DNA of 64,000 nucleotides from a virus (IMGVR_UViG_3300031555_003397); one strand, 5' to 3'. Positions 26,617 through 53,408 are shown, counted from the first letter of the stretch. The notes: a model not told the origin generated them from the letters alone. Program-made: numbers and translations.

Positions 26617-26934
26617 GTGGATGCAGCTTTTACATGGCCGCATCCTACTGATAAAGGTTACTTTACTACCGCAGTTTTTGTTCGTACTGATGAAGATAAG
26701 CCCTATCTGATTTATTGCCCAAGAGCTACGACTGCAATTAGTATTGATGAAGAAAGCTATAATCCTTATCTGCTTTGGTGCGACAAACCCTATACTGTAA
26801 GAGAAGTTAAACTTAACCAATCTCTTACTAAGGAAGGAGATGTCTTGTTCTATATTATAGCTTTAGGTAAATCAGAACCAAAAGTTAAAAAAGCAGATAT
26901 AGAAAAAATGTTTGGCGTCAAGGTGGTGGATTAA
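26617..26934 (+). CDS. Hypothetical protein (start uncertain)
   Basis: Open frame between dut and ruvC; GTG start just after the dut stop. Confidence 0.55.
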   Translation: MDAAFTWPHPTDKGYFTTAVFVRTDEDKPYLIYCPRATTAISIDEESYNPYLLWCDKPYTVREVKLNQSLTKEGDVLFYIIALGKSEPKVKKADIEKMFGVKVVD

Positions 26935-27662
26935 TGGCTCGCATAACCATTGAATCTATCAATGAAGAATTAAAAGAAACCGGTTGGAAATGTGTCTCCG
27001 AAACTTATCAAAATCTCGATACACCACTTGAATTTGAATGTGATGAAGGTCATACTATTCAAGCAACATGGAAAAAGATACGCTCAAAGCGCGAATGCCC
27101 AAGATGTAAAGACAACAAGCTAAAAGAAAAAGTATTAACTGTAGAATCAAAACCTAAAGGAAAGAAACGAATCTTAGCTATTGACTAGGCAACACATACC
27201 TGTGGCTGGTCTATATATGATGGAAATAAACTGATACGATATGGAACTTTTACTACTAATCTAAAAGATGAAATCGCACGCGATAGCACAATAAAAAATT
27301 GGATGTTATCAATGATTGAAAGCTGGTAGCCAGACGCTATTGGACTGGAAGGAATCCAATATCAAGACGAGGTATCTGGACAAAAAGCCTCAGTCACTGT
27401 ATTCCAAGCATTGGCTCGTTTACAGGGAATCTTAATGGAAACCTGTTACGAAAAGAAAATAGAATACACAGTTTGCCCAACCAATACCTGGCGCCACCAC
27501 TGTGGCGTTACAGGAAGAACTCGCATCGATAAGAAACGCTCAATGCAAAATAAAGCCAAAGAATGGCATGATATCACAGTAAGTGATGACGAAGCGGACG
27601 CAATTGGTATAGGCAAATATGTTGCCGATTTATACAATATAGAAGTTGTAAATTGGGAATAA
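26934..27662 (+). CDS. RuvC-like Holliday junction resolvase with N-terminal Zn ribbon (TAG at 27186 and 27327 = Gln)
   Basis: ILAID*ATHTCGWS (=LAIDQAT), IGLEGIQ, PTNTWR, DDEADAIGIG; track ORFs join in frame. Confidence 0.88.
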
Positions 27663-27668
27663 AAATTG

Positions 27669-27695
27669 AGGGAGTCATAAGACTCCCTCTTTTAC
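27669..27695. terminator. Bidirectional terminator at the convergence of the two gene blocks
   Basis: GAGGGAGTC-ataa-GACTCCCTC flanked by AAAAA upstream and TTTT downstream. Confidence 0.9.
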
Positions 27696-28055
27696 TTTAT
27701 AAACACCCCAAATGAACCTATTAGAAGGGTCGAAGGTATCATATATCACTCCGTCAATAACGCAAGTTATATGACCGTTCATCGTTATCAAGAAGGTTCC
27801 AAGTGGGTTGTGTTCCACAAACTCTCTTATCGTTAGACGACATTTCTTGCATAAATATATTTTTTCAAAGTGTGTATCTAGATATTCATCTATATAGGTT
27901 ACATCATCAGGCATTATACATAGTAACTAAGCATAATGACTTAGCTCTCGGTAGTTTTCATCCCAGCTTCTGTTTGTTGCTTTGGATATCGCACGGACAG
28001 TGCAATCATTTACATGACGTCCACGAGGATTCGCATTATAAAAACAGAACATCAT
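27675..28055 (-). CDS. Putative papain-like Cys-His-Asp hydrolase (module gene f; TAG at codon 43 = Gln)
   Basis: Extended upstream: MMFCFYNANPRGRHVNDCTVRAISKA...GHITCVIDGVIYDTFD; ATGA overlap with gene e. Confidence 0.65.
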
Positions 28056-28540
28056 AGTTGACTAATTTTATGAAGATGTTTTCTAATAATCTCTTTTTCC
28101 TGTGGAGTCTCAGCAAAGTCCATGGCTGATTCAACAAACATACACATAGCATACATTAGCTTTTCGAGACCTTCCATGACACGGCCATCATCACCACCGT
28201 GCATATAACGCTCTTTACCATATTCATACTGGTCCATACCATCTACCATGCGGTCCATATAGTCTCTCATACGACTGTAACGGCGGCCATAGCCATCATT
28301 ATAACCTCCGTCACGATAATTGCCTCGAGCGTTGTAGCCTCCATCGCGATAGTTTTCGCGATATCTGCCATATTCCATCATTCCTTGACCTCCCTTATCC
28401 ATATTTTCGATTTCGCTTAAATCCTTGTAGATATCAGCGAGTTTGCCGATTAGCTCTAAATTGCTAGCATTGACTCCTTTCTGTTCAATCTCTACAAGCT
28501 CTTTTTTGATTTGTTCCATCAGTTTATGCATCGACGTCAC
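28052..28540 (-). CDS. Helical protein with central R/D/G/Y repeats (module gene e)
   Basis: YRENYRDGGYNARGNYRDGGYNDGYGRRYSR low-complexity core between helical ends. Confidence 0.8.
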   Translation of the reverse strand: MTSMHKLMEQIKKELVEIEQKGVNASNLELIGKLADIYKDLSEIENMDKGGQGMMEYGRYRENYRDGGYNARGNYRDGGYNDGYGRRYSRMRDYMDRMVDGMDQYEYGKERYMHGGDDGRVMEGLEKLMYAMCMFVESAMDFAETPQEKEIIRKHLHKISQL

Positions 28541-28546
28541 CTCACA

Positions 28547-28939
28547 TTAAGGAGTTGGCGCTTCTGCTACTGGTAGAGAAGCTAAGTTTTCAGTGCAGCG
28601 AGAGCAAGGTAGCTTTCCTAAAAGTTTGAATACGCCGGTTGTAGTATTGGTGCTAACAATAGTGCTGTATCTTGTTCTAGTATTAATAGAGCAAGCGGTT
28701 ATTGGACTGCAATCACATCCTACTAGGTCGTATTCAGTTGTTCCATCACCAATAGTAATTACTACTGGAGCTGTAATAGTTGTTTCTGCTGGAATAGCCT
28801 GTGCCACCACCAGACAATACTTACATCCATTTCCGTAATTTCCAGCAGGAATGTTAATAGTTAAAGTGCCATCTGCAAAAGTAACTGCGGTAGAAATTAC
28901 CAGATTTTTGCATAGACGTCTTACATTAGGACAACTCAA
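28547..28939 (-). CDS. Cys-containing beta-rich protein (module gene d)
   Basis: TTG start with SD GAGAGGTGA; 9 Cys; alternating beta-strand pattern. Confidence 0.8.
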   Translation of the reverse strand: MSCPNVRRLCKNLVISTAVTFADGTLTINIPAGNYGNGCKYCLVVAQAIPAETTITAPVVITIGDGTTEYDLVGCDCSPITACSINTRTRYSTIVSTNTTTGVFKLLGKLPCSRCTENLASLPVAEAPTP

Positions 28940-28960
28940 TTCTTTTCACCTCTCAATGGA

Positions 28961-28976
28961 GGGCGCCGAAGCGCCC
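28961..28976 (-). other. GC-rich C(UUCG)G tetraloop hairpin between module genes c and d
   Basis: Minus strand GGGCGC-TTCG-GCGCCC, no U tract. Confidence 0.75.
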
Positions 28977-29006
28977 GCCAGAATCACGCATTAGCGGAGT
29001 AGTTGA

Positions 29007-29789
29007 TTAGCAGCAACCGCAACCATTGTTAAAACCGAAACCGAAATTCTGATTCAAACCAAATGCAGAAGCATAAGGAGAGCAAGTCAGATAGGCAGGC
29101 TTTGCCACAGGCATTAGACGATTGATGATATTATCAGTCTGAGATAGCTGAGATAGCTGGAACTGAGCGGACTGTAGTTCAGTACGCAGTTTATCCATTT
29201 CAGTCTGATTTAGATAATTGATAATACGGTCAGTATTCTTATCGCCAGCAACTAGCAAGTTGTTAGCTACGTTAGCGATTTCATACTTTATAGCATCCTG
29301 GCCGCGCTCGATGTCGCAGCAGCAAGAAGCTAGTTGATTAGTTACGCCATTGAAGCCAGCTTGTATATTATAACCTAGGTTGCAAATACCCTGGTTAACA
29401 CCATTAAAGCCAGTCATCATAGCCATCTTTGTGTCGCAGCAGCAATTCTGCAAAGCTGCTAGAACAGAGTTTACTTGCTGAGCGTTGTTGTAGAAGCCAT
29501 CACATAGACCTCTCTCTAAGCCTCTTAGGCTGTTGTCTAACTGGTTGAAATTGAAAGCGTCGGCTAAGCCCTGAGCAGTTGCAGGAGTGCAACAAGCACC
29601 GCCTCCACCGTTGCCATTGCCGCCGAAACCGCCACGATTCCAGCCACCTGCGCCGAACAGTAGAATTAGAATAATAATCCACCATGCGCCATCGCCGCCC
29701 CAACCACCAAAGCCGGAGCCGCCATTATAGCCACCATTACCACGAAGCGCCAAAGCATCAGCTACAGAGATTCCTTCATTACCCATCAT
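29007..29789 (-). CDS. Gly-rich, single-TM, CCC-motif coiled-coil protein (module gene c)
   Basis: GGWGGDGAWWIIILILLFGAGGW; ACCT, NCCCD, SCCCD, GCGCC; capsid-like codon bias. Confidence 0.85.
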   Translation of the reverse strand: MMGNEGISVADALALRGNGGYNGGSGFGGWGGDGAWWIIILILLFGAGGWNRGGFGGNGNGGGGACCTPATAQGLADAFNFNQLDNSLRGLERGLCDGFYNNAQQVNSVLAALQNCCCDTKMAMMTGFNGVNQGICNLGYNIQAGFNGVTNQLASCCCDIERGQDAIKYEIANVANNLLVAGDKNTDRIINYLNQTEMDKLRTELQSAQFQLSQLSQTDNIINRLMPVAKPAYLTCSPYASAFGLNQNFGFGFNNGCGCC

Positions 29790-29830
29790 TTTTGTACCTC
29801 CCTTAAAGGTTTTTTATTTATATAAATTGC

Positions 29831-30073
29831 TTAGAAGTTTCTTATGCTTTGCAGTAGGTTACTCATTTCGGCCGAAAAATTTTTACCTTGCATACCAAAA
29901 GTCTCTTCAGCAATTCTTTGCAATCCTTGAACGTCTCCTCTTTCCGCCATTTGAACCAATTGACTCATGCGCGGGTCATTGGGATAGTTATTTTGGATGA
30001 TTTGCATAGCAACTTGCCGAGGGTTGCCTTGCTTTAACATCATCATTAAATTCATTGGATTCATAGCTACCAT
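29831..30073 (-). CDS. Met/Gln/Asn-rich small protein (module gene b)
   Basis: MNPMNLMMMLKQGNPRQVAMQ. Confidence 0.75.
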   Translation of the reverse strand: MVAMNPMNLMMMLKQGNPRQVAMQIIQNNYPNDPRMSQLVQMAERGDVQGLQRIAEETFGMQGKNFSAEMSNLLQSIRNF

Positions 30074-30495
30074 TTTTCACTTCCTCCCTTTGATTTTTCT
30101 GGAGTTTCTAGCTTTTTCAATCTAGCATCAAATTCTTCCAGAACGTTTAAAATTCTTTGTTCAATTGATGTCTCCGGTGCCGATACCGGAGCATCAGTTG
30201 GGTTAGGATTTTGAATTATTTTTTCTTGGATTAGTGTATTGTTTTCTAAAGGACTTAGCTTATAACTTAGTAGCATTGGACTACCATTTTGAATTGTCTT
30301 TAAATATATTAGTCCTTCGCGCAAACAAATAGCAGCAGATAATCCAACACCCACTGGAACATTAGCCACCTCACTTGAATTACCTATCATGTAAATACTG
30401 CCCTATGGTTGTGGGAAGTATTGTGTCATTTGATATGGCTGAAAGTTAGCAGGTTGATTGAAATTCATATAATTGTTATTATTTACTGGATTCAT
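30067..30495 (-). CDS. N/Q/P/Y-rich N-terminus + beta domain + coiled coil (module gene a; TAG at codon 31 = Gln)
   Basis: Extended to ATG 30495 with SD AGAGGAGG: MNPVNNNNYMNFNQPANFQPYQMTQYFPQP*GSIYMIG. Confidence 0.8.
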
Positions 30496-30579
30496 TTTCT
30501 TACCTCCTCTTACCCTTCTGACTATAAGTTAGGCTAGAAGGCTATGGATAATTGTTTTTCACTGATGGACAAAAAGAAT

Positions 30580-30608
30580 CTCCCTAATGCACAAAAAGCA
30601 TTAGGGAG
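30580..30608 (-). terminator. Rho-independent terminator ending the tail block
   Basis: CTCCCTAATGC-7nt-GCATTAGGGAG, followed on the minus strand by ATTCTTTTTG. Confidence 0.85.
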
Positions 30609-30625
30609 TTTTTGTTTATTTTGTT

Positions 30626-31000
30626 TTAGTCGGTGATTAGAGGTAAAATTCCGTACATATCACTTACAGACAGCTCGAGCTTTTCAAATTCTTCAATAGA
30701 AAATTTGAACTCACTTAAATCAATTTCAAGATTTTTAAGTTCGGCGATCTTTGCACTGCACTCATCTTCCTTGCCTTCAATAATTTTAATGGAAGTCATG
30801 TCTTCAGAATAAACAAGCTGACCATTTTCTTTGAGAGCATATTCATCTACAATTTTTGCAAACTCAGTCTGATAGAATTGAGTTTCCTCTTCAACCCGGC
30901 GCATTAAACGAGTTAACTTGTAGGTGGTTTTAATGGGAAGCTTCGCATTTATGATTAAGTTGTAAAAGTTTTGAATTGATAAGACTTCATAAAGTTTCAT
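30626..31000 (-). CDS. Hypothetical acidic helical protein
   Basis: 124-aa ORF, SD GGAGG, own promoter. Confidence 0.75.
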   Translation of the reverse strand: MKLYEVLSIQNFYNLIINAKLPIKTTYKLTRLMRRVEEETQFYQTEFAKIVDEYALKENGQLVYSEDMTSIKIIEGKEDECSAKIAELKNLEIDLSEFKFSIEEFEKLELSVSDMYGILPLITD

Positions 31001-31028
31001 TTAATTTCCTCCATTTTTCTTTATAATT

Positions 31029-31057
31029 ATTATAACATAAAAATATAAGAAAATCAA
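31029..31057 (-). promoter_or_regulatory. sigmaA-type promoter on the minus strand (TTGATT-N17-TATAAT, TGn)
   Basis: Reverse complement aaaatTTGATTttcttatatttttatgtTATAAT. Confidence 0.8.
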
Positions 31058-31060
31058 ATT

Positions 31061-34000
31061 TTACCATTTACCGCCATCTATCATAAAACCATCTAACGCA
31101 CCAGTAGAAGTATTTATCTATTTAACTCCAGTAGAAGAAACTAAATAAATTATATTTTTTGAGCTATGTTCACCAACAACAATAACAGCATTTTCATAAT
31201 TATTTAAATTAGAAGCATTGATTCCCAATAAATTCTTACGATAAGAAACAGTTGGTAAAACATTATATACAGCCTGCTCATTGGTGTATACTGTTTTAGT
31301 GGTAGTATATTTTTCAGTTCCGTTAGTTACTGTTTGCGTTGTGGTTAAAACTAAACGGCACACAAATGCATCTGCACCCTCGGAGAAAACAAAAATAACA
31401 CTACGTCTTGTTCCAGAATAAGATAAGAAAGAGGCAAGAGAATTAATACCAATGTCAACTGAACTTGCACCATTCCAATCGATATTTGCAATATTTCTAT
31501 ATTCTAATTTTGCAGTCAATGTTAAAGAATAATTACTATTATCGGTTATGGTTAATGCGCCAGGATGATTGTTGGTATAACGATAATTTAAATAAGAGGT
31601 AGCTCTAGTGACCTCAGTAGAGCTATAATCAGCTTCATTTAAAGTTACCGCACCCTAAGAGGTATGACCGCACACTTTTACATTTCCAGCATATAATTTA
31701 GAACCAGTATAATGATATTTGCTATCTGCATCAGTTATAACCTTAATTCTAAAATTAACCTAATAATCCAATTCAATTAGTTCACCAACAGTGATAATCT
31801 TCTAGTTAGAAAAAGTATAGGTGGTGGGAGTTCCTTGAGAAGGTGTTGTATTAGAAATAGAAGAAGATTTAGATGCTAAATCTATAGGATTACCAAAATT
31901 AACATACCCAGATTCTACTCCATTTTTAATACGATTAATCTAAATCTGAATTTTTGGATTAGTATTATAAGATTTTACAGTTCCATTAACGGTTAATGGC
32001 ATACCTTCTTTTAGATACTCCCAAGTATTTATTTCTTTACTATTATTTATTTTAATAGAACAAGAAGTAACCTAAGGAATTACACCATAATTAACCACAT
32101 AATTTATAGAAGTGCTTGTGTCAGTTCCAAAAACATCTGTAAAACCAACGGTTAAGGTTCCTTGATAAGTTTTATTTTTATTAGATACGGTAGGTAGCAT
32201 GGCATATAATTGAGCAGCAGTTAAGCTAAAATATAAGGTATCATTTGTTGTTGAATTGCCATTAACTGTTTTCTAAACTATTGTTAAAGACTATGATTTG
32301 CCTGTTGCAGAATCGACAGTTAATTTTGCATAAAAACTACTTGAGATATCTGAAATACCATATTCCTTATATTTACTCGGCGTTAGTTCTGAATAAGAGA
32401 CATTAAAGGTATTATATATACTAAAATCATAAGTTACTCCAGAAGTATAAACCTAAAAATCAGAAGAAGCTGTTAAATTTTTAGCTTCTAAATTTTCAAT
32501 TTTATAAGAGGAGCCTAAGTTTAATTTTGATGTATAAAAGTTATTTGCGGCATGGCCTAATTCACCAGTAAAAGTATAAGAACCCTTGGTAAGATTAATA
32601 CCTAACCACTATCCTCTTAAACCATCTGACGCGGCAGTTAGGGAAATTGTACCAACCTGAGTTGTCCCATTAAAAATTTTTAAACTATTATATCCAGTAT
32701 CTCTCTAGAATTTAAAAGAAAGGGCTTTGGAAAAATATCCCTAAAATTCTGATAAATTAATATTCTAATAATTTTGAGTATTATACATACCTAATAAACT
32801 AGGACGTTTTGACGCATAATATTTTGTACTAGAAGTATTAACAGCATTAGAAGTATCCATTCCATCATTTCTAGTAGCTGAAAAATAATAGTAATAGCTT
32901 GTTGTAGCCAAATTAGTAAAATAGCCTAAGGCACGAACATCATCAATTGTTTTTGTTAAAGATGAATCGTTTTCCCAAAGTGTTTTTTTAGTCCAAGAGC
33001 TATTATCGGTACTATAATGTATATAATAATTATACGTATTATTATCCTACTAACCATTATTACCTTTGGTTAAAGTAATTGTAGGATTTAGAATATAAGT
33101 CGCACCACTCAAGGTATTAACTGTTTCCAACTAAGTTCCTGTCACTTTTATTGTAACAGTTGGTTTCGTATTGCTTGAGACAGATACCGTGTAGTAGTCA
33201 GCACTGTCTTCTAAACCATCATTCGACCAAAAATAATAAGTTCCTGCGCCAACCCCTGATAAAGAAAAAGAAGAAGCGCAAGCAGTTTTTGTGCCAGTTG
33301 CAGAAGTTGCATATTTTAAGCCAACTGTTTGCCCATCAGAATCTGTACCAGGAGTTATATTAAAAGTAACGGTGCCACCAGAAGCTGGCACTAAAGTGGG
33401 CGAAACCGTTCCTCCCAAAGGTCTGGTAGGTAAGTTATTAATTTTTACGCTGCCGCCAGTTGTTATTCCAGAATAGTAAGAAGAACCAGCCGAACCCTTA
33501 GTTACCACTCCAAAAACAACCGTATGTCCACGAGTGGCATTACCTATATTTATTTTTGCGCTACCAGAACTACTTGTAGAAGATATACTAGTTTTGGTTG
33601 TATAAGTGCTAGTTGAAGGTGCAGAACCTTCGGAAGTAATTCTCCAATAAATATCATATCCGTTTATTGAATTACTTGTGCCACCACTTGCGCCAGACCA
33701 AGACACTGTAACTTCCCCATTAGGTGCGACCAAACCGGAAGCTGTTACCGAAGTTGGTGCATAACAATTAGAATAGGCTAAGTTTGTATTCAAAGTGCAA
33801 GTTTCATATGCTGAAGCGTTATGTTCCCAGTTATAACCACTATCAATATATGCAGAAATACTTACTATAAAACTACCAGAACCGTCTGAAGAGTGAACTA
33901 CTGTAAAACTACCGTCATCTTCAAAATCGTTGGCAAAGCTACAGCCATTATCACTAGAACCTGGTACCCTTCTACCAGTGCTCAATATATCATGCCAAGA

Positions 34001-34189
34001 CCCGTTGTAATATACCGATATATCACAATCAGTAGCTAACCACGTGGGAGAGCTACTACGTCCTCTTTTGTAAATATCATAACTAACTTTTGTTTGTCCT
34101 TTAGTTGAGGTAGCCTTAGCCGTCCACTCAAAAGACCAATAAGCTCCATTATTAGGATGATAAGCTTTTACAGAGCCGCTACTAGCCAT
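31061..34189 (-). CDS. Tail fibre / receptor-binding protein (DUF859-like N-terminus, FN3/Ig-like repeats; 1042 aa, many TAG=Gln)
   Basis: Track ORFs 33131-34189 and 31118-31519 share a frame; ends TAA 31061; S/T/G-rich beta repeats (VTVSWSGASGG). Confidence 0.75.
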
Positions 34190-34204
34190 TTACTTTCCTC
34201 CTTT

Positions 34205-36985
34205 TTACTCATTTATAAATAAATCATAACCTTCTTCTGCCTTCTTATACTACATATAAGAAGTGCCAGAACCAAAATAAACATCTTTTTCCAACCATGT
34301 TGCCAAAGATTTTATCTAACTTTTGTCTTTATTAATAATTATACTATCTTCCCTACCAGATCCCTAATTAAAACCAAAACTTATTTTATCATTGGTAAAA
34401 TTCTAGTAGCTTCTTTCACTTGATAAGCCATCAGAAATAATTTTCATAGATAGGTCTACACCATTTATAGTATTAGAAACAATTTCTAAATAATTTTCTT
34501 CTTTTGTATCAATTACAAAACTATCTCCATAAAAACCGATCTTATCATTTTTAATTTCGATAAAATAATCATTATTCTATTGTAATCCATCTGCCCGAAT
34601 GGCAAATACTTCTTTTTCTGTAGTTTGATAACCCTCTTTAAATATAATACCCATAGAGGTATCATAAATAGTTAATGAATTGGACTAACTAGTAGTACCA
34701 CCATGAATTCGAGCAGCATAAATATCAGCGCCCTAAATTATACTATCAGAAATAATGGAATCTCTAAAGATGCCTTTTCTTGCATATATTGAACCCATTT
34801 CAGTAACCTAAAAAGGAGACTCTTGAATATCTATATTAGTACTAGAAGCAGAGCCAGCCCAGAAAATAATTCTAGAGTTATCTTTATTACCAAAGACAGT
34901 GGCGGTTGCTTCACCAATGGTGTTTATACCTGCATAACTATCATCGTCTACTTTAGTCGTTAAAGAACCATTTAAGAAAACGTTATCTGCATATAGGCCA
35001 AGACCGGTAATATTTTTATCCACTGCGCCATCCAGCTAACCTAAAACCAATCTCTTAGTATAGGTTAACGCGCCATTTTCCTCTACAAAATCACTGATTG
35101 TTAAGGCATTACCAGAGGCAAAGGCTCTGTTATCATTTATAATAGCCTATTCACCAAGTATAGATAAAATAAAACCAGGTACTTGAGAATCAGAAGTTTT
35201 ACCAAATTTAGTGATAATTAAACCATCATCTAAAATATAGGATTTATTTAGCGTAATAGTTGTGGTAGTGTCATTTTGAGTTAAACTAACTACTTTGTAA
35301 ATATTCTTGCCAGAATAAATCCAATCATTTGCGCTTAAATTAGTCAAACCACTTACTACAATAATATTATTATTAGCACTTGTTATACTCCAGCTATCCT
35401 TAAATACCATTAAACTACCCATAGCTTGCACAGTGCCAATTTCAAGAATTGTATCTTGTAAATGAACATTATCAGCATAAATATCATTAAAAATAGCTAC
35501 GCCATCTTCACGAATTAGCCAATTGCCGTTTTCAGATTTCATATATGCTTGAGTGGTATCATCTCCACCATGCATCTCAATAGAACCTAAATTTAAAATA
35601 CCTGTTTGGTTCAGATTGATATTACCGGCTTCAATAAACTTATCTCTGTGATTAGTTGGATTATAAATAAAGGCATTACCTATTTTAATATAATCTTCAA
35701 TTACTGCGCCCGCGCCTAATATGATATCGTGTGCAATAATCTAACCAGTTGTACCATCTAAAGTGATATTTGGTAAATAGGTCTCCTGTCCGTCAACGAC
35801 TTTAATATAAATTTTTTCGGAGGTTAACTTATCCTCTAGAATATTAAAGCCTCCAATCTTACCACTTTTTGCGGTAATTGAACCTTCAAAATAACCTGAC
35901 TTACTTCTTAATTCACCAGCAAAATAACCATTGTTTGCATTAATAGTACCAGTAATAGTAAGATTGCCAGTGTCTGCAGAAGACCATAATACCTATTCAC
36001 CATTTCTATTAAGAATCTAAAAGCCACCATTCTAAATGGTCAAACCTGTTGCCGAAAAAGTTAAGTAAGAATCCTATATTGACTGTACAATTTTCCCTGC
36101 TTCGACAGATAAGGCAGCCATATCTTTTTTTATACCATATCGGACATTTAAATAGTCAATTAAATTAAAATTACCTTCTTCATTTTCTAAAAGATAGGTA
36201 TATCTAACTAAACATTCTTCATCCAATAAAATTCTGAAAGCAAGAGCATCTCTACTTAAGTTGTATAAGTCAATATTAAAAGTATCCTAAGTTTCATCAA
36301 AATTTATAAAATCTGGTGATATGTCTATATATTGATTAGAATTTATATCATAAACAGAAATAGAGAATTTTTCTTTTGATAATCCCCTAACTTGTTCATA
36401 ATACAAACCACTACCTGGCGCCGCCTAGTCTTTATAAACTGCAAATTGTAAGTTTTCTGGGCTAAAGGTAACTGTATTTCCGTCTAAGCTAACAAACTTT
36501 AAAATTTCAGTTTGATTGGCACTAATTCTATAGCTAGAAGAAGAAGTACCAGGAGGACCTTGCTTACCTTCTTCACCATTCTCGCCCCATCTATAAACTC
36601 CATAAACAACTGTTTCATTATTATTTGTGTAATAATAAATTGTTTTAGTCCATAAATATTGACCAGGTCCTACAGTTGGGACAGTGGAAAGCCATCCTTC
36701 TGTGCCAGTAATATTATTCCCACCATCGACTTTTAATTCAACTTTAGCATCGTTATAATAAGCATATAAGATACCATTTTCAACGTGGAAACTGGTCCCT
36801 AAGTCACTAAAACTTAGGGCACCATCCACTCCATTAATTTTTAAACTGGCCCCTTCTAAGTCCGGTGGAAGGTCACCAGTACTACTTAAAGCATATAAAA
36901 CTTTGGTGTGAGAAATACCAACTCCTGCAGTAGCAGTAATATCACTCATATCAACCAAACTAATGCTACCAGTATATTTAGCCAT
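34205..36985 (-). CDS. Tail fibre / minor tail protein (926 aa, TAG=Gln)
   Basis: Fragments 36425-36997, 35147-35575 and 34808-35023 share a frame; WLSTVPTVGPGQYLWTKT motif and short collagen-like GENGEEGKQGPPG. Confidence 0.75.
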
Positions 36986-52547: not shown

Positions 52548-53408
52548 TTAGCCAGCAGCTACTTCAGTCAAAACGTGGTTGTGAACCAACTTAGCAGCTG
52601 CATCAGTAGCAACATCATCGCCACCACTTAGCTCATACTTAATCAGCTTCATCATAATACCGTCAGCAGGACGCAAAACCTTCAAACTCATATTAAAGAC
52701 AGAAGGATCGCCTTCAGCCTCTAGAGTGATAGTATTCTCAGAAGTAACCTTAGCCTTAGGAATGATGAACTGGAACATTTCGTCGTTACCAGAAGCTTCG
52801 GAACGAGCGAAAGTATCACCAACAACATAATAGGTGCCAGGGAAACTGTTACCAGAAACTTCGATAACTGCACCAGTAGCCTTCAAGTCAAAAGTGCATA
52901 GATATCTCTGACCAACTTCCATTGCAGTTGCTGCAATAGCAGTGCCCTTTGCATCATAATACTTTGCATTTAGCATTTCATACTTCTTGCCGTCAGGACC
53001 AATCCACCAAGACTTACCATCTGCATCAGCGTTAGGGTCCTTACCCTTCTCAGTAGGAACAATCTGAATAGTTTTCATAATGAAGTCAGCATTAGCGTCG
53101 GTTTCAGTATTTTTGCTAGAATCAAAATCCTTAACAGTACCATTACCGAACATAATAGCCATGGACTTAGCAGAGAACAGAGCGTCTTCCAGAGTGACGT
53201 TGATTTCCTTACCGTAGTCCCAAGCGATTAGAGCAGCGTTACCCTTACCACCGCGAGCTTCGGCTTCTTCAGCAGTCTGCTCAATGGTAGAAACTTTCAA
53301 GGTATCCAGGTATAGAACTGGATGAGTAGGCATACCAGTGTTGCTTAGCTCGTAGAAGGTTACGTCAGCAACTTCCTTAATGCCATATCTATCAAGAATA
53401 TTAGCCAT
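52548..53408 (-). CDS. Major tail tube protein
   Basis: 286 aa, strong codon bias, followed by a terminator, upstream of the tape measure. Confidence 0.8.
   Translation of the reverse strand: MANILDRYGIKEVADVTFYELSNTGMPTHPVLYLDTLKVSTIEQTAEEAEARGGKGNAALIAWDYGKEINVTLEDALFSAKSMAIMFGNGTVKDFDSSKNTETDANADFIMKTIQIVPTEKGKDPNADADGKSWWIGPDGKKYEMLNAKYYDAKGTAIAATAMEVGQRYLCTFDLKATGAVIEVSGNSFPGTYYVVGDTFARSEASGNDEMFQFIIPKAKVTSENTITLEAEGDPSVFNMSLKVLRPADGIMMKLIKYELSGGDDVATDAAAKLVHNHVLTEVAAG

Follow-up and report, generated by a model that had tools for sequence, protein, structure and literature searches.

A dispensable, insertion-like late-gene cassette shared by diverse phages and its possible role as a membrane-anchored stalk and knob

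The viral sequence IMGVR_UViG_3300031555_003397, analyzed here as a window of 64,000 nucleotides (nt), carries on its minus strand a cassette of six small genes, termed a to f from the upstream end, that occupies positions 27675-30495 between two terminator-like hairpins. A first-pass annotation of this DNA had delineated the same six genes as a unit; all six open reading frames (ORFs) were confirmed at these coordinates, and both hairpins were recovered by a terminator scan. Here we define the cassette as a discrete unit that related phages possess or lack at exactly this site, which is the firmest of our results, and report that its core of genes a, b and c, together with a gene for a small knob protein, is kept in order across unrelated phages. 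The cassette is among the commonest in gut phages (the family of c returns about 4800 matches) and has no assigned function; solving its role would fill a visible gap in the annotation of gut-phage genomes.

Results

Position and composition of the cassette

The window phage is a siphophage in which the codon TAG is recoded to glutamine, and its late genes read as long frames only under this code, as illustrated by a tape-measure-like protein of 2840 residues with 58 TAG codons and a fibre protein of 1042 residues with 16. Matches to PHROG families identify on the minus strand the large terminase, the portal, a capsid-type protein (56595-57647), the distal tail protein Dit and fibre proteins, and positions 1-27662 of the plus strand hold replication genes encoding gyrase, DnaB, UvrD, RecJ, a radical SAM protein and a RuvC-like resolvase. 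The RuvC-like gene (26934-27662, identified from phrog_159 and phrog_827) is convergent with the cassette, which is placed behind the tail-fibre operon and before the replication arm, at the exact meeting point of the late (minus) and replication (plus) arms. The features of the locus are as follows.

30580-30608, bidirectional: upstream boundary hairpin, 11-bp stem with six GC pairs and T runs on both strands, between the gene at 30626-31000 and gene a
30061-30495, minus strand: gene a, 144 residues, TAG at codons 31 and 143
29831-30073, minus strand: gene b, 80 residues
29007-29789, minus strand: gene c, 260 residues, the core protein
29640-29687, minus strand: hydrophobic anchor of c predicted from hydropathy, about residues 35-50, W/I/L/F-rich with Gly/Trp/Asn flanks
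28958-28979, minus strand: hairpin between c and d, GC-rich stem with a UUCG loop and no U tract, abutting the Shine-Dalgarno sequence of d
28547-28939, minus strand: gene d, 130 residues, TTG start
28052-28540, minus strand: gene e, 162 residues, or 159 from the ATG at 28531
27675-28055, minus strand: gene f, 126 residues, TAG at codon 43
27668-27689, bidirectional: downstream boundary hairpin, 9-bp stem with six GC pairs, common to the cassette and the RuvC-like gene at 26934-27662

The scan returned seven terminator-like sites in the region, against 2.8 +/- 1.8 in shuffled sequences. Genes a and b overlap by 13 nt and e and f by 4 nt (ATGA), and gaps of 41, 67 and 6 nt separate b from c, c from d and d from e, respectively, a spacing in agreement with the first-pass description. 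Strong ribosome-binding sites of the GGAGG type stand ahead of a, b and c. No ribosome-binding site precedes the GTG start that the ORF finder gave to e, and the ATG three codons on (28531) follows GAGGTGA by 5 nt and is, by these signals, the likelier start. As had been noted at first pass, the first and last genes are interrupted by amber codons and b to e contain none; when TAG is translated as glutamine, homologs free of such codons match a and f over their whole length. The G+C content is 0.43 at 28001-30000, against 0.33-0.38 in the flanks.

Presence or absence at a single site in related phages

Dispensability was assessed in 80 loci fetched by means of the flanking RuvC-like gene, 75 of which had enough downstream sequence. 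Gene c is carried by 33 of these relatives, with 1.5-4.9 kb between the flanking genes. The other 42 lack c, and their flanking genes, where both were found, lie mostly -43 to +100 bp apart, the exceptions being four larger gaps of at most 1.7 kb. The abutment of flanking genes in relatives without the cassette establishes it as dispensable and insertion-like. It displays the traits of a mobile insertion: terminator-like boundaries of its own, a deviating G+C content and presence or absence at one precise site.

The 124-residue gene directly upstream (30626-31000, minus strand; phrog_1401, with no annotated function) is retained in most relatives, with or without the cassette, and abuts the RuvC-like gene at empty sites, which makes it a backbone gene outside the cassette. 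In one cassette-less relative (L255:8777-8977, minus strand) we observed a stump of 66 residues resembling the Q/P/Y-rich N-terminus of a, which looks from its sequence like the remnant of a lost cassette.

A complete, syntenic relative of 125,686 bp with terminal repeats, IMGVR_UViG_3300045988_126510 (G001, equivalent to our loci L172-L178), allowed direct comparison. Proteins c, d and f are 60-66% identical between the two phages and the capsid protein 53%; the ratio of nonsynonymous to synonymous substitution rates is about 0.1-0.2 in the cassette genes, at saturated synonymous divergence, and alike in the capsid gene. These low ratios indicate that the cassette genes are functional and under purifying selection; between these two phages they descended together with the backbone. 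Profiles of the cassette proteins found no significant paralog in the rest of the window or in G001 (d against a fibre tip, E-value 0.48), and a DNA-level search of the phage collection with positions 27000-34500 gave no match. Outside the region shared with the window, G001 encodes RtcB, an RNA and a DNA ligase, NADAR, Macro and RNase H proteins, an SPFH/Band 7 protein, a Peptidase_C39_2 protein, Amidase_3 and several homing-type nucleases of the GIY-YIG and HNH kinds.

Conservation of gene order across unrelated phages

At 50% identity, the 4791 matches of the c family fall into 1207 clusters. We fetched 160 loci holding c homologs (25-70% identity) from viral and genome collections, and flanks were searched with iterated profiles. 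The order a-b-c(-d-e-f), on one strand, recurs in some 160 loci of widely differing phages. Of 169 loci bearing c, 142 also hold a homolog of a, 119 one of b, 82 one of d, 78 one of e and 61 one of f, with strand and order conserved; a stands directly upstream of b-c in all 142, b lies between a and c wherever it is present, and f is found on either side of the core in different loci. The first-pass annotation had called for a neighbourhood check, and the genes do co-occur as a unit across many phages, those of Clostridium included.

Close relatives keep the order 124-residue gene-a-b-c-d-e-f. The cultured Clostridium perfringens phage XP41-N3 carries a-b-c-d, and Bajarodcaudo virus 2 carries a-b-c-d-e between its portal and capsid genes. 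Elsewhere the flanks include an integrase (26 loci) or minor capsid protein 2 and a scaffold protein (13-14 loci). The core a-b-c is present on a 545-kb Phascolarctobacterium contig, and gene c occurs alone on a 201-kb Bacteroidales contig and in crAss-like phages. Carriers include siphophages, prophages, phages of 125-180 kb and one of about 31 kb whose head module differs, with crAss-like podophages represented by gene c; many carriers were binned with Clostridia.

Codon usage and candidate control signals

The codon usage of b, c and e has the signature of the late genes with the highest expression. None of their 32 glutamine codons is TAG (0 of 33 with the single glutamine codon of d), against 31% TAG when the late genes are pooled (P about 4e-6 for b to e), and their G+C content at third codon positions (GC3) is 0.40-0.43 (0.42 in b), compared with 0.46 in the capsid gene, 0.46-0.49 in the capsid gene and its neighbour, and 0.17-0.30 in the tail genes. 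The first-pass annotation had ascribed a capsid-grade codon bias to c; that bias is real and extends to b and e, and is not shared by d, a or f. Across the window, TAG makes up 25-62% of the glutamine codons of tail genes and is absent from three minus-strand genes: the capsid-type gene, its 192-residue neighbour (57666-58244) and a gene for a 286-residue virion protein (52548-53408), where GC3 is highest. The most expressed late genes seem to avoid the recoded codon.

The hairpin behind c, proposed earlier as a stabilising element, is present; in a 76-nt context it folds at -24.2 kcal/mol and is only modestly unusual (z = -2.0), and it lacks a U tract. Between the upstream boundary hairpin and gene a (30496-30625, minus strand), a TTTTGT ... 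AGAA(A/T) ... TTTCGTC-like stretch is common to several relatives (L004, L094 and L097) in a rough alignment and may be a promoter or belong to the terminator. Some of the coordinates chosen for the promoter alignment upstream of a ran into coding sequence, and no promoter was demonstrated by it. In 19 of the loci L010-L169 an 84-residue protein with a sigma-70 region 4/helix-turn-helix domain is encoded directly before a, about 1 kb upstream of c (for example L115:4867-5118), and in 23 loci a zinc-ribbon protein follows the cassette; both may be cassette-specific regulators.

Protein c: a predicted anchor and stalk

Protein c contains 16% Gly, 14 Cys (as CC, CCC, CCC and a GCGCC end) and one hydrophobic segment. 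From its N-terminus the protein runs through a short helix, a Gly-rich stretch, the hydrophobic anchor and a second Gly-rich stretch into two long helices (81-129 and 135-225), which are followed by a CCC that is nearly invariant, an invariant P-x-P-AY-x-TC-x-PY motif and a GCGC tail. A comparable hydrophobic segment occurs in 145 of 171 c homologs, and the structural model places a helix at residues 36-46 over the anchor and is confident (predicted local distance difference test score, pLDDT, 83-95) for residues 160-225. Acidic residues beside the anchor number 1.85 per flank on the N side against 0.90 on the other, which weakly favours an N-out, C-in topology. Along the rod of about 150 residues, hydrophobicity repeats every 3.64 residues, in this protein as in its family, and a repeat of 3.5 carries little power, which points to a coiled coil of the hendecad type.

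The top-scoring profile matches of c in the PDB, all of them weak, are to the heptad repeat 1 (HR1) coils of coronavirus S2 and influenza HA2/HEF2 (E-value 0.0055 with the family profile, 0.02 with c alone). Scores of this size are at noise level and the likeness is best read as compositional; it is probably the source of the label "spike protein/glycoprotein" in crAss-like records. Beyond phrog_16490, which has no annotated function, and a weak match to Baculo_PEP_C (E-value 0.013), c stands apart, and 48 members of its family matched none of the families in Pfam or NCBIfam. Composition, anchor, helices and codon bias agree with the earlier description of c as a membrane-anchored structural protein, and c looks like a Cys-rich protein of this kind made in large amounts. 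The one long relative, P0277 (597 residues, from a Logan contig), is fused to a portal domain of the SPP1 Gp6 type, probably an artefact of gene calling in a stop-codon-recoded phage whose cassette follows the portal gene.

Protein d and the slot that follows c

Protein d contains nine Cys, and its AlphaFold2 model (pLDDT 82) is a stand-alone beta-sandwich of eight strands. Among PDB structures it has one standout match, to bead III of gp47 of phage Pa193 (Z 5.5, root-mean-square deviation 4.9 A over 98 residues), a trimeric tail fibre (PDB 9b45; PMC11456595). Against the predicted structures of BFVD, matches beyond its own family (E-values 1e-4 to 1e-3) are to collagen-like, tail-fibre, T7-fibre, autotransporter-stalk, receptor-binding and DUF7841 proteins. 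The earlier statement that the cassette does not resemble virion genes was therefore too strong, since the d fold recurs in predicted tail-fibre, collagen-like and receptor-binding proteins. No similarity to the fibre tips of the window phage itself was detectable.

Clustering of the genes that follow c placed the d type in this slot in 68 loci and three BclA_C-like groups in about 109, and DUF7841 proteins, similar in fold to d, are encoded in the region downstream of c in 46 loci. The slot occupant of one locus (L167) matched the Pfam family BclA_C (PF18573) at an E-value of 2.2e-4 and 21.5 bits, under the cutoff of 38 bits; d did not match PF18573, and neither BclA nor C1q was among the matches listed when the d model was compared with the PDB by Foldseek and VIA. 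Because the occupants of the slot differ in type while a-b-c stays, the cassette consists of a conserved core and an exchangeable knob. A complex prediction for three copies of the c tail (150-260) with three of d scored 0.02, with a mark of 0.32, from alignments whose rows were translated with table 11.

Proteins a, b, e and f

Protein a has an N-terminus rich in N, Q, P and Y, a small conserved middle of beta type and a C-terminal amphipathic helix; Gly71 is invariant in its alignment and Tyr64 and Lys66 nearly so. Protein b is helical, with 14% Met and 12% Gln and invariant NP, P and G positions, and e has helical ends around a disordered middle rich in R, D, G and Y with two YRDGGYN repeats, and matches phrog_28802 (no annotated function). 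Compositions and Cys counts given at first pass agree with ours for b, c, d and e. In f, the residues N7, D17, C18, R21, H95 and D106 are invariant in 28 sequences, and Asn7, Cys18, His95 and Asp106 follow the catalytic order of papain (Asn/Gln, Cys, His, Asp/Asn). Its only PHROG matches are phrog_3754 and phrog_15863, neither with an annotated function, and no curated peptidase family was matched in Pfam, NCBIfam or PDB sequences; f is predicted from these residues to be a small papain-type Cys enzyme. The occurrence of f in only 61 of the 169 loci, on either side of the core, weakens the earlier idea that the unit carries its own maturation protease.

No fitting family was found for a to f in Pfam, NCBIfam, PADLOC or PDB sequences, nor with family profiles of a, b, c, e and f, in line with the first-pass description of a module of unknown function; stray matches in these searches were noise from coiled coils or designed proteins. 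PADLOC defence models likewise matched neither a to f nor the upstream 124-residue protein. Signal peptides were found in none of a, b, d and e, and a lipoprotein signal in none of the cassette proteins. Literature on BclA-like phage proteins and on the proteomics of C. perfringens phages yielded nothing on the cassette genes.

Discussion

A tentative model of the cassette product

The cassette appears, by its codon usage, to be expressed at the level of capsid genes and yet is dispensable. We propose, with a probability that we put at about 0.42, that it is a mobile late unit of the moron type that builds a membrane-anchored stalk and knob exposed at lysis. A short hydrophobic segment with Gly on both sides would hold protein c in the cytoplasmic membrane, and c would extend from there a stalk of about 20 nm, probably trimeric and of non-heptad coiled coil, ending in the Pro/Cys-rich tail. 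A stand-alone beta-sandwich knob (d here, a BclA_C-like or DUF7841 protein elsewhere) would cap or accompany this stalk; a and b, which precede c, and the low-complexity protein e would help to assemble or cluster it, and f, where present, would be an accessory Cys hydrolase. Since a, b, d and e lack signal peptides, we infer that the assembly is made on the cytoplasmic side and meets the outside only when the cell lyses. The product would then be an accessory made in abundance at the level of the envelope, with an exchangeable knob for a variable ligand, and this assignment of a role is the weakest step of the explanation. It might act at or after lysis, for example in adhesion, in clustering or in masking receptors on debris; sequence alone does not decide between adhesion, such masking, a part in the timing of lysis and an intracellular task. 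Most likely, the cassette serves neither a spore nor a capsid nor a core lysis function.

Several observations weigh against this proposal. Overall, the model of the c monomer scores poorly (pLDDT 62, predicted template modelling score 0.28); the anchor is short, at about 12-15 residues, and the charges beside it are few on both sides, too few for a firm topology. A trimeric state of c is suggested by periodicity and weak similarities, and the physical link between c and d is presumed: a search for fused forms gave a single c-portal chimera and neither a c-d fusion nor any other fused form of d, and the sequence of the c tail shows no visible link to the type of knob. The fold matches of d are modest, with a Z of 5.5 under the level trusted for the tool. 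Finally, no Pfam lysin or holin domain was found in the other 39 proteins of the window, which keeps a lysis-related role in play for this phage.

Alternative explanations

That last observation belongs to a competing account in which c is a glycine-zipper membrane protein of holin, XhlA or i-spanin likeness that would assist in permeabilizing the membrane or in timing its breakdown, a, b, d and e are regulators, and f is a small hydrolase of wall or peptide. The place of the cassette behind tail-fibre genes is the usual one for lysis genes in siphophages of Gram-positive hosts, the c homolog of the crAss-like phage cr53_1 lies two genes past an annotated holin and a LysB-like gene, and the outline of c (a hydrophobic segment with Gly-rich flanks, a long coiled coil and Cys) is that of an i-spanin. 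We nevertheless consider this account rather unlikely, because the clean empty site in 42 of 75 relatives means that the cassette is not needed for phage release. Lytic functions, moreover, lie elsewhere in several carriers: G001 has Amidase_3, PG_binding_1 and Hydrolase_2 outside the cassette, the genomes G002 and G003 have Amidase_2 tens of kb from it, and XP41-N3 encodes an amidase and a holin of its own 4 kb upstream. The cassette is also found in head modules and beside integrases, none of its proteins matches a family of holins or spanins, d lacks a lipoprotein signal, and a capsid-level codon bias is unusual for holins. An accessory virion fibre, with c as stalk, d as tip and a and b as chaperones, would be a non-essential head or tail fibre aiding adsorption or adherence to mucus or cell surfaces. 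It would account for the recurrence of the d fold in fibre-type proteins and in the Pa193 shaft, for a slot that swaps fold types as receptor-binding tips do, for the siting of the cassette directly after tail-fibre genes here and inside head modules elsewhere, for the lack of signal peptides, as in virion proteins, and for dispensability like that of Hoc-type decorations. It would also require a docking site on each of the many virion types that carry the cassette or c, and it sits poorly with a membrane-type, fully hydrophobic segment conserved in most c homologs, with the terminator-bounded independence of the unit and with the dissimilarity of d to the phage's own fibre tips; we hold it to be unlikely.

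An intracellular role is more doubtful still. A membrane-tethered assembly might organize progeny particles at the membrane or neutralize a membrane-acting defence, in keeping with partner proteins that all lack signal peptides, with the acidic excess on the N side of the anchor, which weakly favours an N-out, C-in orientation, with a pattern of presence and absence typical of counter-defence genes, and with low-complexity regions in a and e of the kind that drives clustering. Against it stand the absence of any match to PADLOC or defence-related families and, apart from f, of any enzyme or nucleic-acid-binding domain, and capsid-level expression with a knob swapped in the manner of fibre tips better fits a stoichiometric binder of variable surface ligands. 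Very improbable, in our estimate, is a phage-made spike akin to a viral envelope protein, in which a Gly-rich membrane-active segment, a trimeric stalk and a receptor-binding knob would sit on membrane fragments or vesicles released at lysis and attach to, or fuse with, neighbouring bacteria; were it true, receptors could be masked or transferred, or phage material spread. The first-pass annotation had favoured a disulfide-cross-linked shell like a spore coat or exosporium, remodelling host spores or encasing virions. Gly/Tyr/Cys-rich compositions, the BclA_C-like proteins in the knob slot elsewhere (E-value 2e-4, with a score well under the cutoff), the weak Baculo_PEP_C match of c and the many carriers binned with Clostridia speak for it. 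It is nonetheless largely refuted by the distribution of hosts, and we give it hardly any credence: Phascolarctobacterium and Bacteroidales are not known to form spores, and with a-b-c on the Phascolarctobacterium contig and c in crAss-like phages of Bacteroidales and on the Bacteroidales contig, both the expected restriction to spore-formers and the link to spores fail. Nor did the six proteins, searched at E-values up to 1, match any CotY, CotZ, ExsY or YjcZ family in Pfam or NCBIfam, contrary to the likeness to CotY/ExsY coat proteins once suggested, and no BclA or C1q match was listed for d by sequence or by fold. The first-pass interpretation as a whole is partly supported: the self-contained unit and a membrane-anchored c are in agreement with the results, and the spore link is not.

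Establishing what the cassette does could bring to light a new mode of phage action on the envelope of the cell or on what surrounds it after lysis. Culturable carriers exist, so the question is directly testable.

Comparison with known systems

Like the i-spanin Rz and XhlA, c combines one hydrophobic segment near its N-terminus with a long coiled coil and conserved Cys, is encoded late and sometimes lies near lysis genes; unlike them it matches no family, has no lipoprotein partner, is dispensable and is accompanied by a, b and a knob protein. The cassette also occurs in phages of C. perfringens, a host with a single membrane, and we do not assign c to the i-spanins. Holins were considered and rejected as well: c has 260 residues and no holin family match, is absent from 42 of 75 relatives, and lysins lie elsewhere in G001-G003. 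With the HR1 of class I fusion proteins (HA2/HEF2, coronavirus S2), c shares a Gly-rich hydrophobic segment followed by an N/Q/S-rich, non-canonical coil of trimeric type. It lacks a second heptad repeat, a C-terminal anchor and a precursor cleavage site, its C-terminus is Pro/Cys-rich, and it is accordingly not placed in that class.

The morons llp of T5 and cor of phi80 lie after tail-fibre or lysis genes and are single small lipoprotein genes that block receptors. The cassette resembles them in being a terminator-bounded insertion of deviating G+C content, present or absent among close relatives and situated beside receptor-binding genes; it differs in comprising three to six genes with a capsid-level codon bias. 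Bead III of Pa193 gp47 is the best structural match of d, and the knob slot swaps modules as phage fibre tips do. The similarity is modest, however, and d is a stand-alone protein of 130 residues with nine Cys and no fused form found, in a cassette that is portable between virion types.

BclA/F-BclA fibres of the Bacillus exosporium and F-ENA appendages form a stalk-and-knob arrangement that mediates clustering of spores (PMC12357932). BclA and F-BclA share with the proposed assembly a trimeric stalk bearing a small beta-sandwich knob, made in the cytoplasm without signal peptides and mounted on a surface, with the knob serving contacts or clustering, and the knob slot of about 109 related cassettes holds a protein weakly similar to BclA_C. 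In BclA the stalk is a collagen triple helix fused to the knob, whereas that of the cassette would be an alpha-helical coiled coil, formed by a polypeptide of its own that bears a membrane-type anchor; no BclA or C1q match was listed for the window d, and the carriers are phages, many of them with hosts that do not form spores. The likeness would be one of architecture only, and on those terms BclA offers the nearest working analogy for the cassette.

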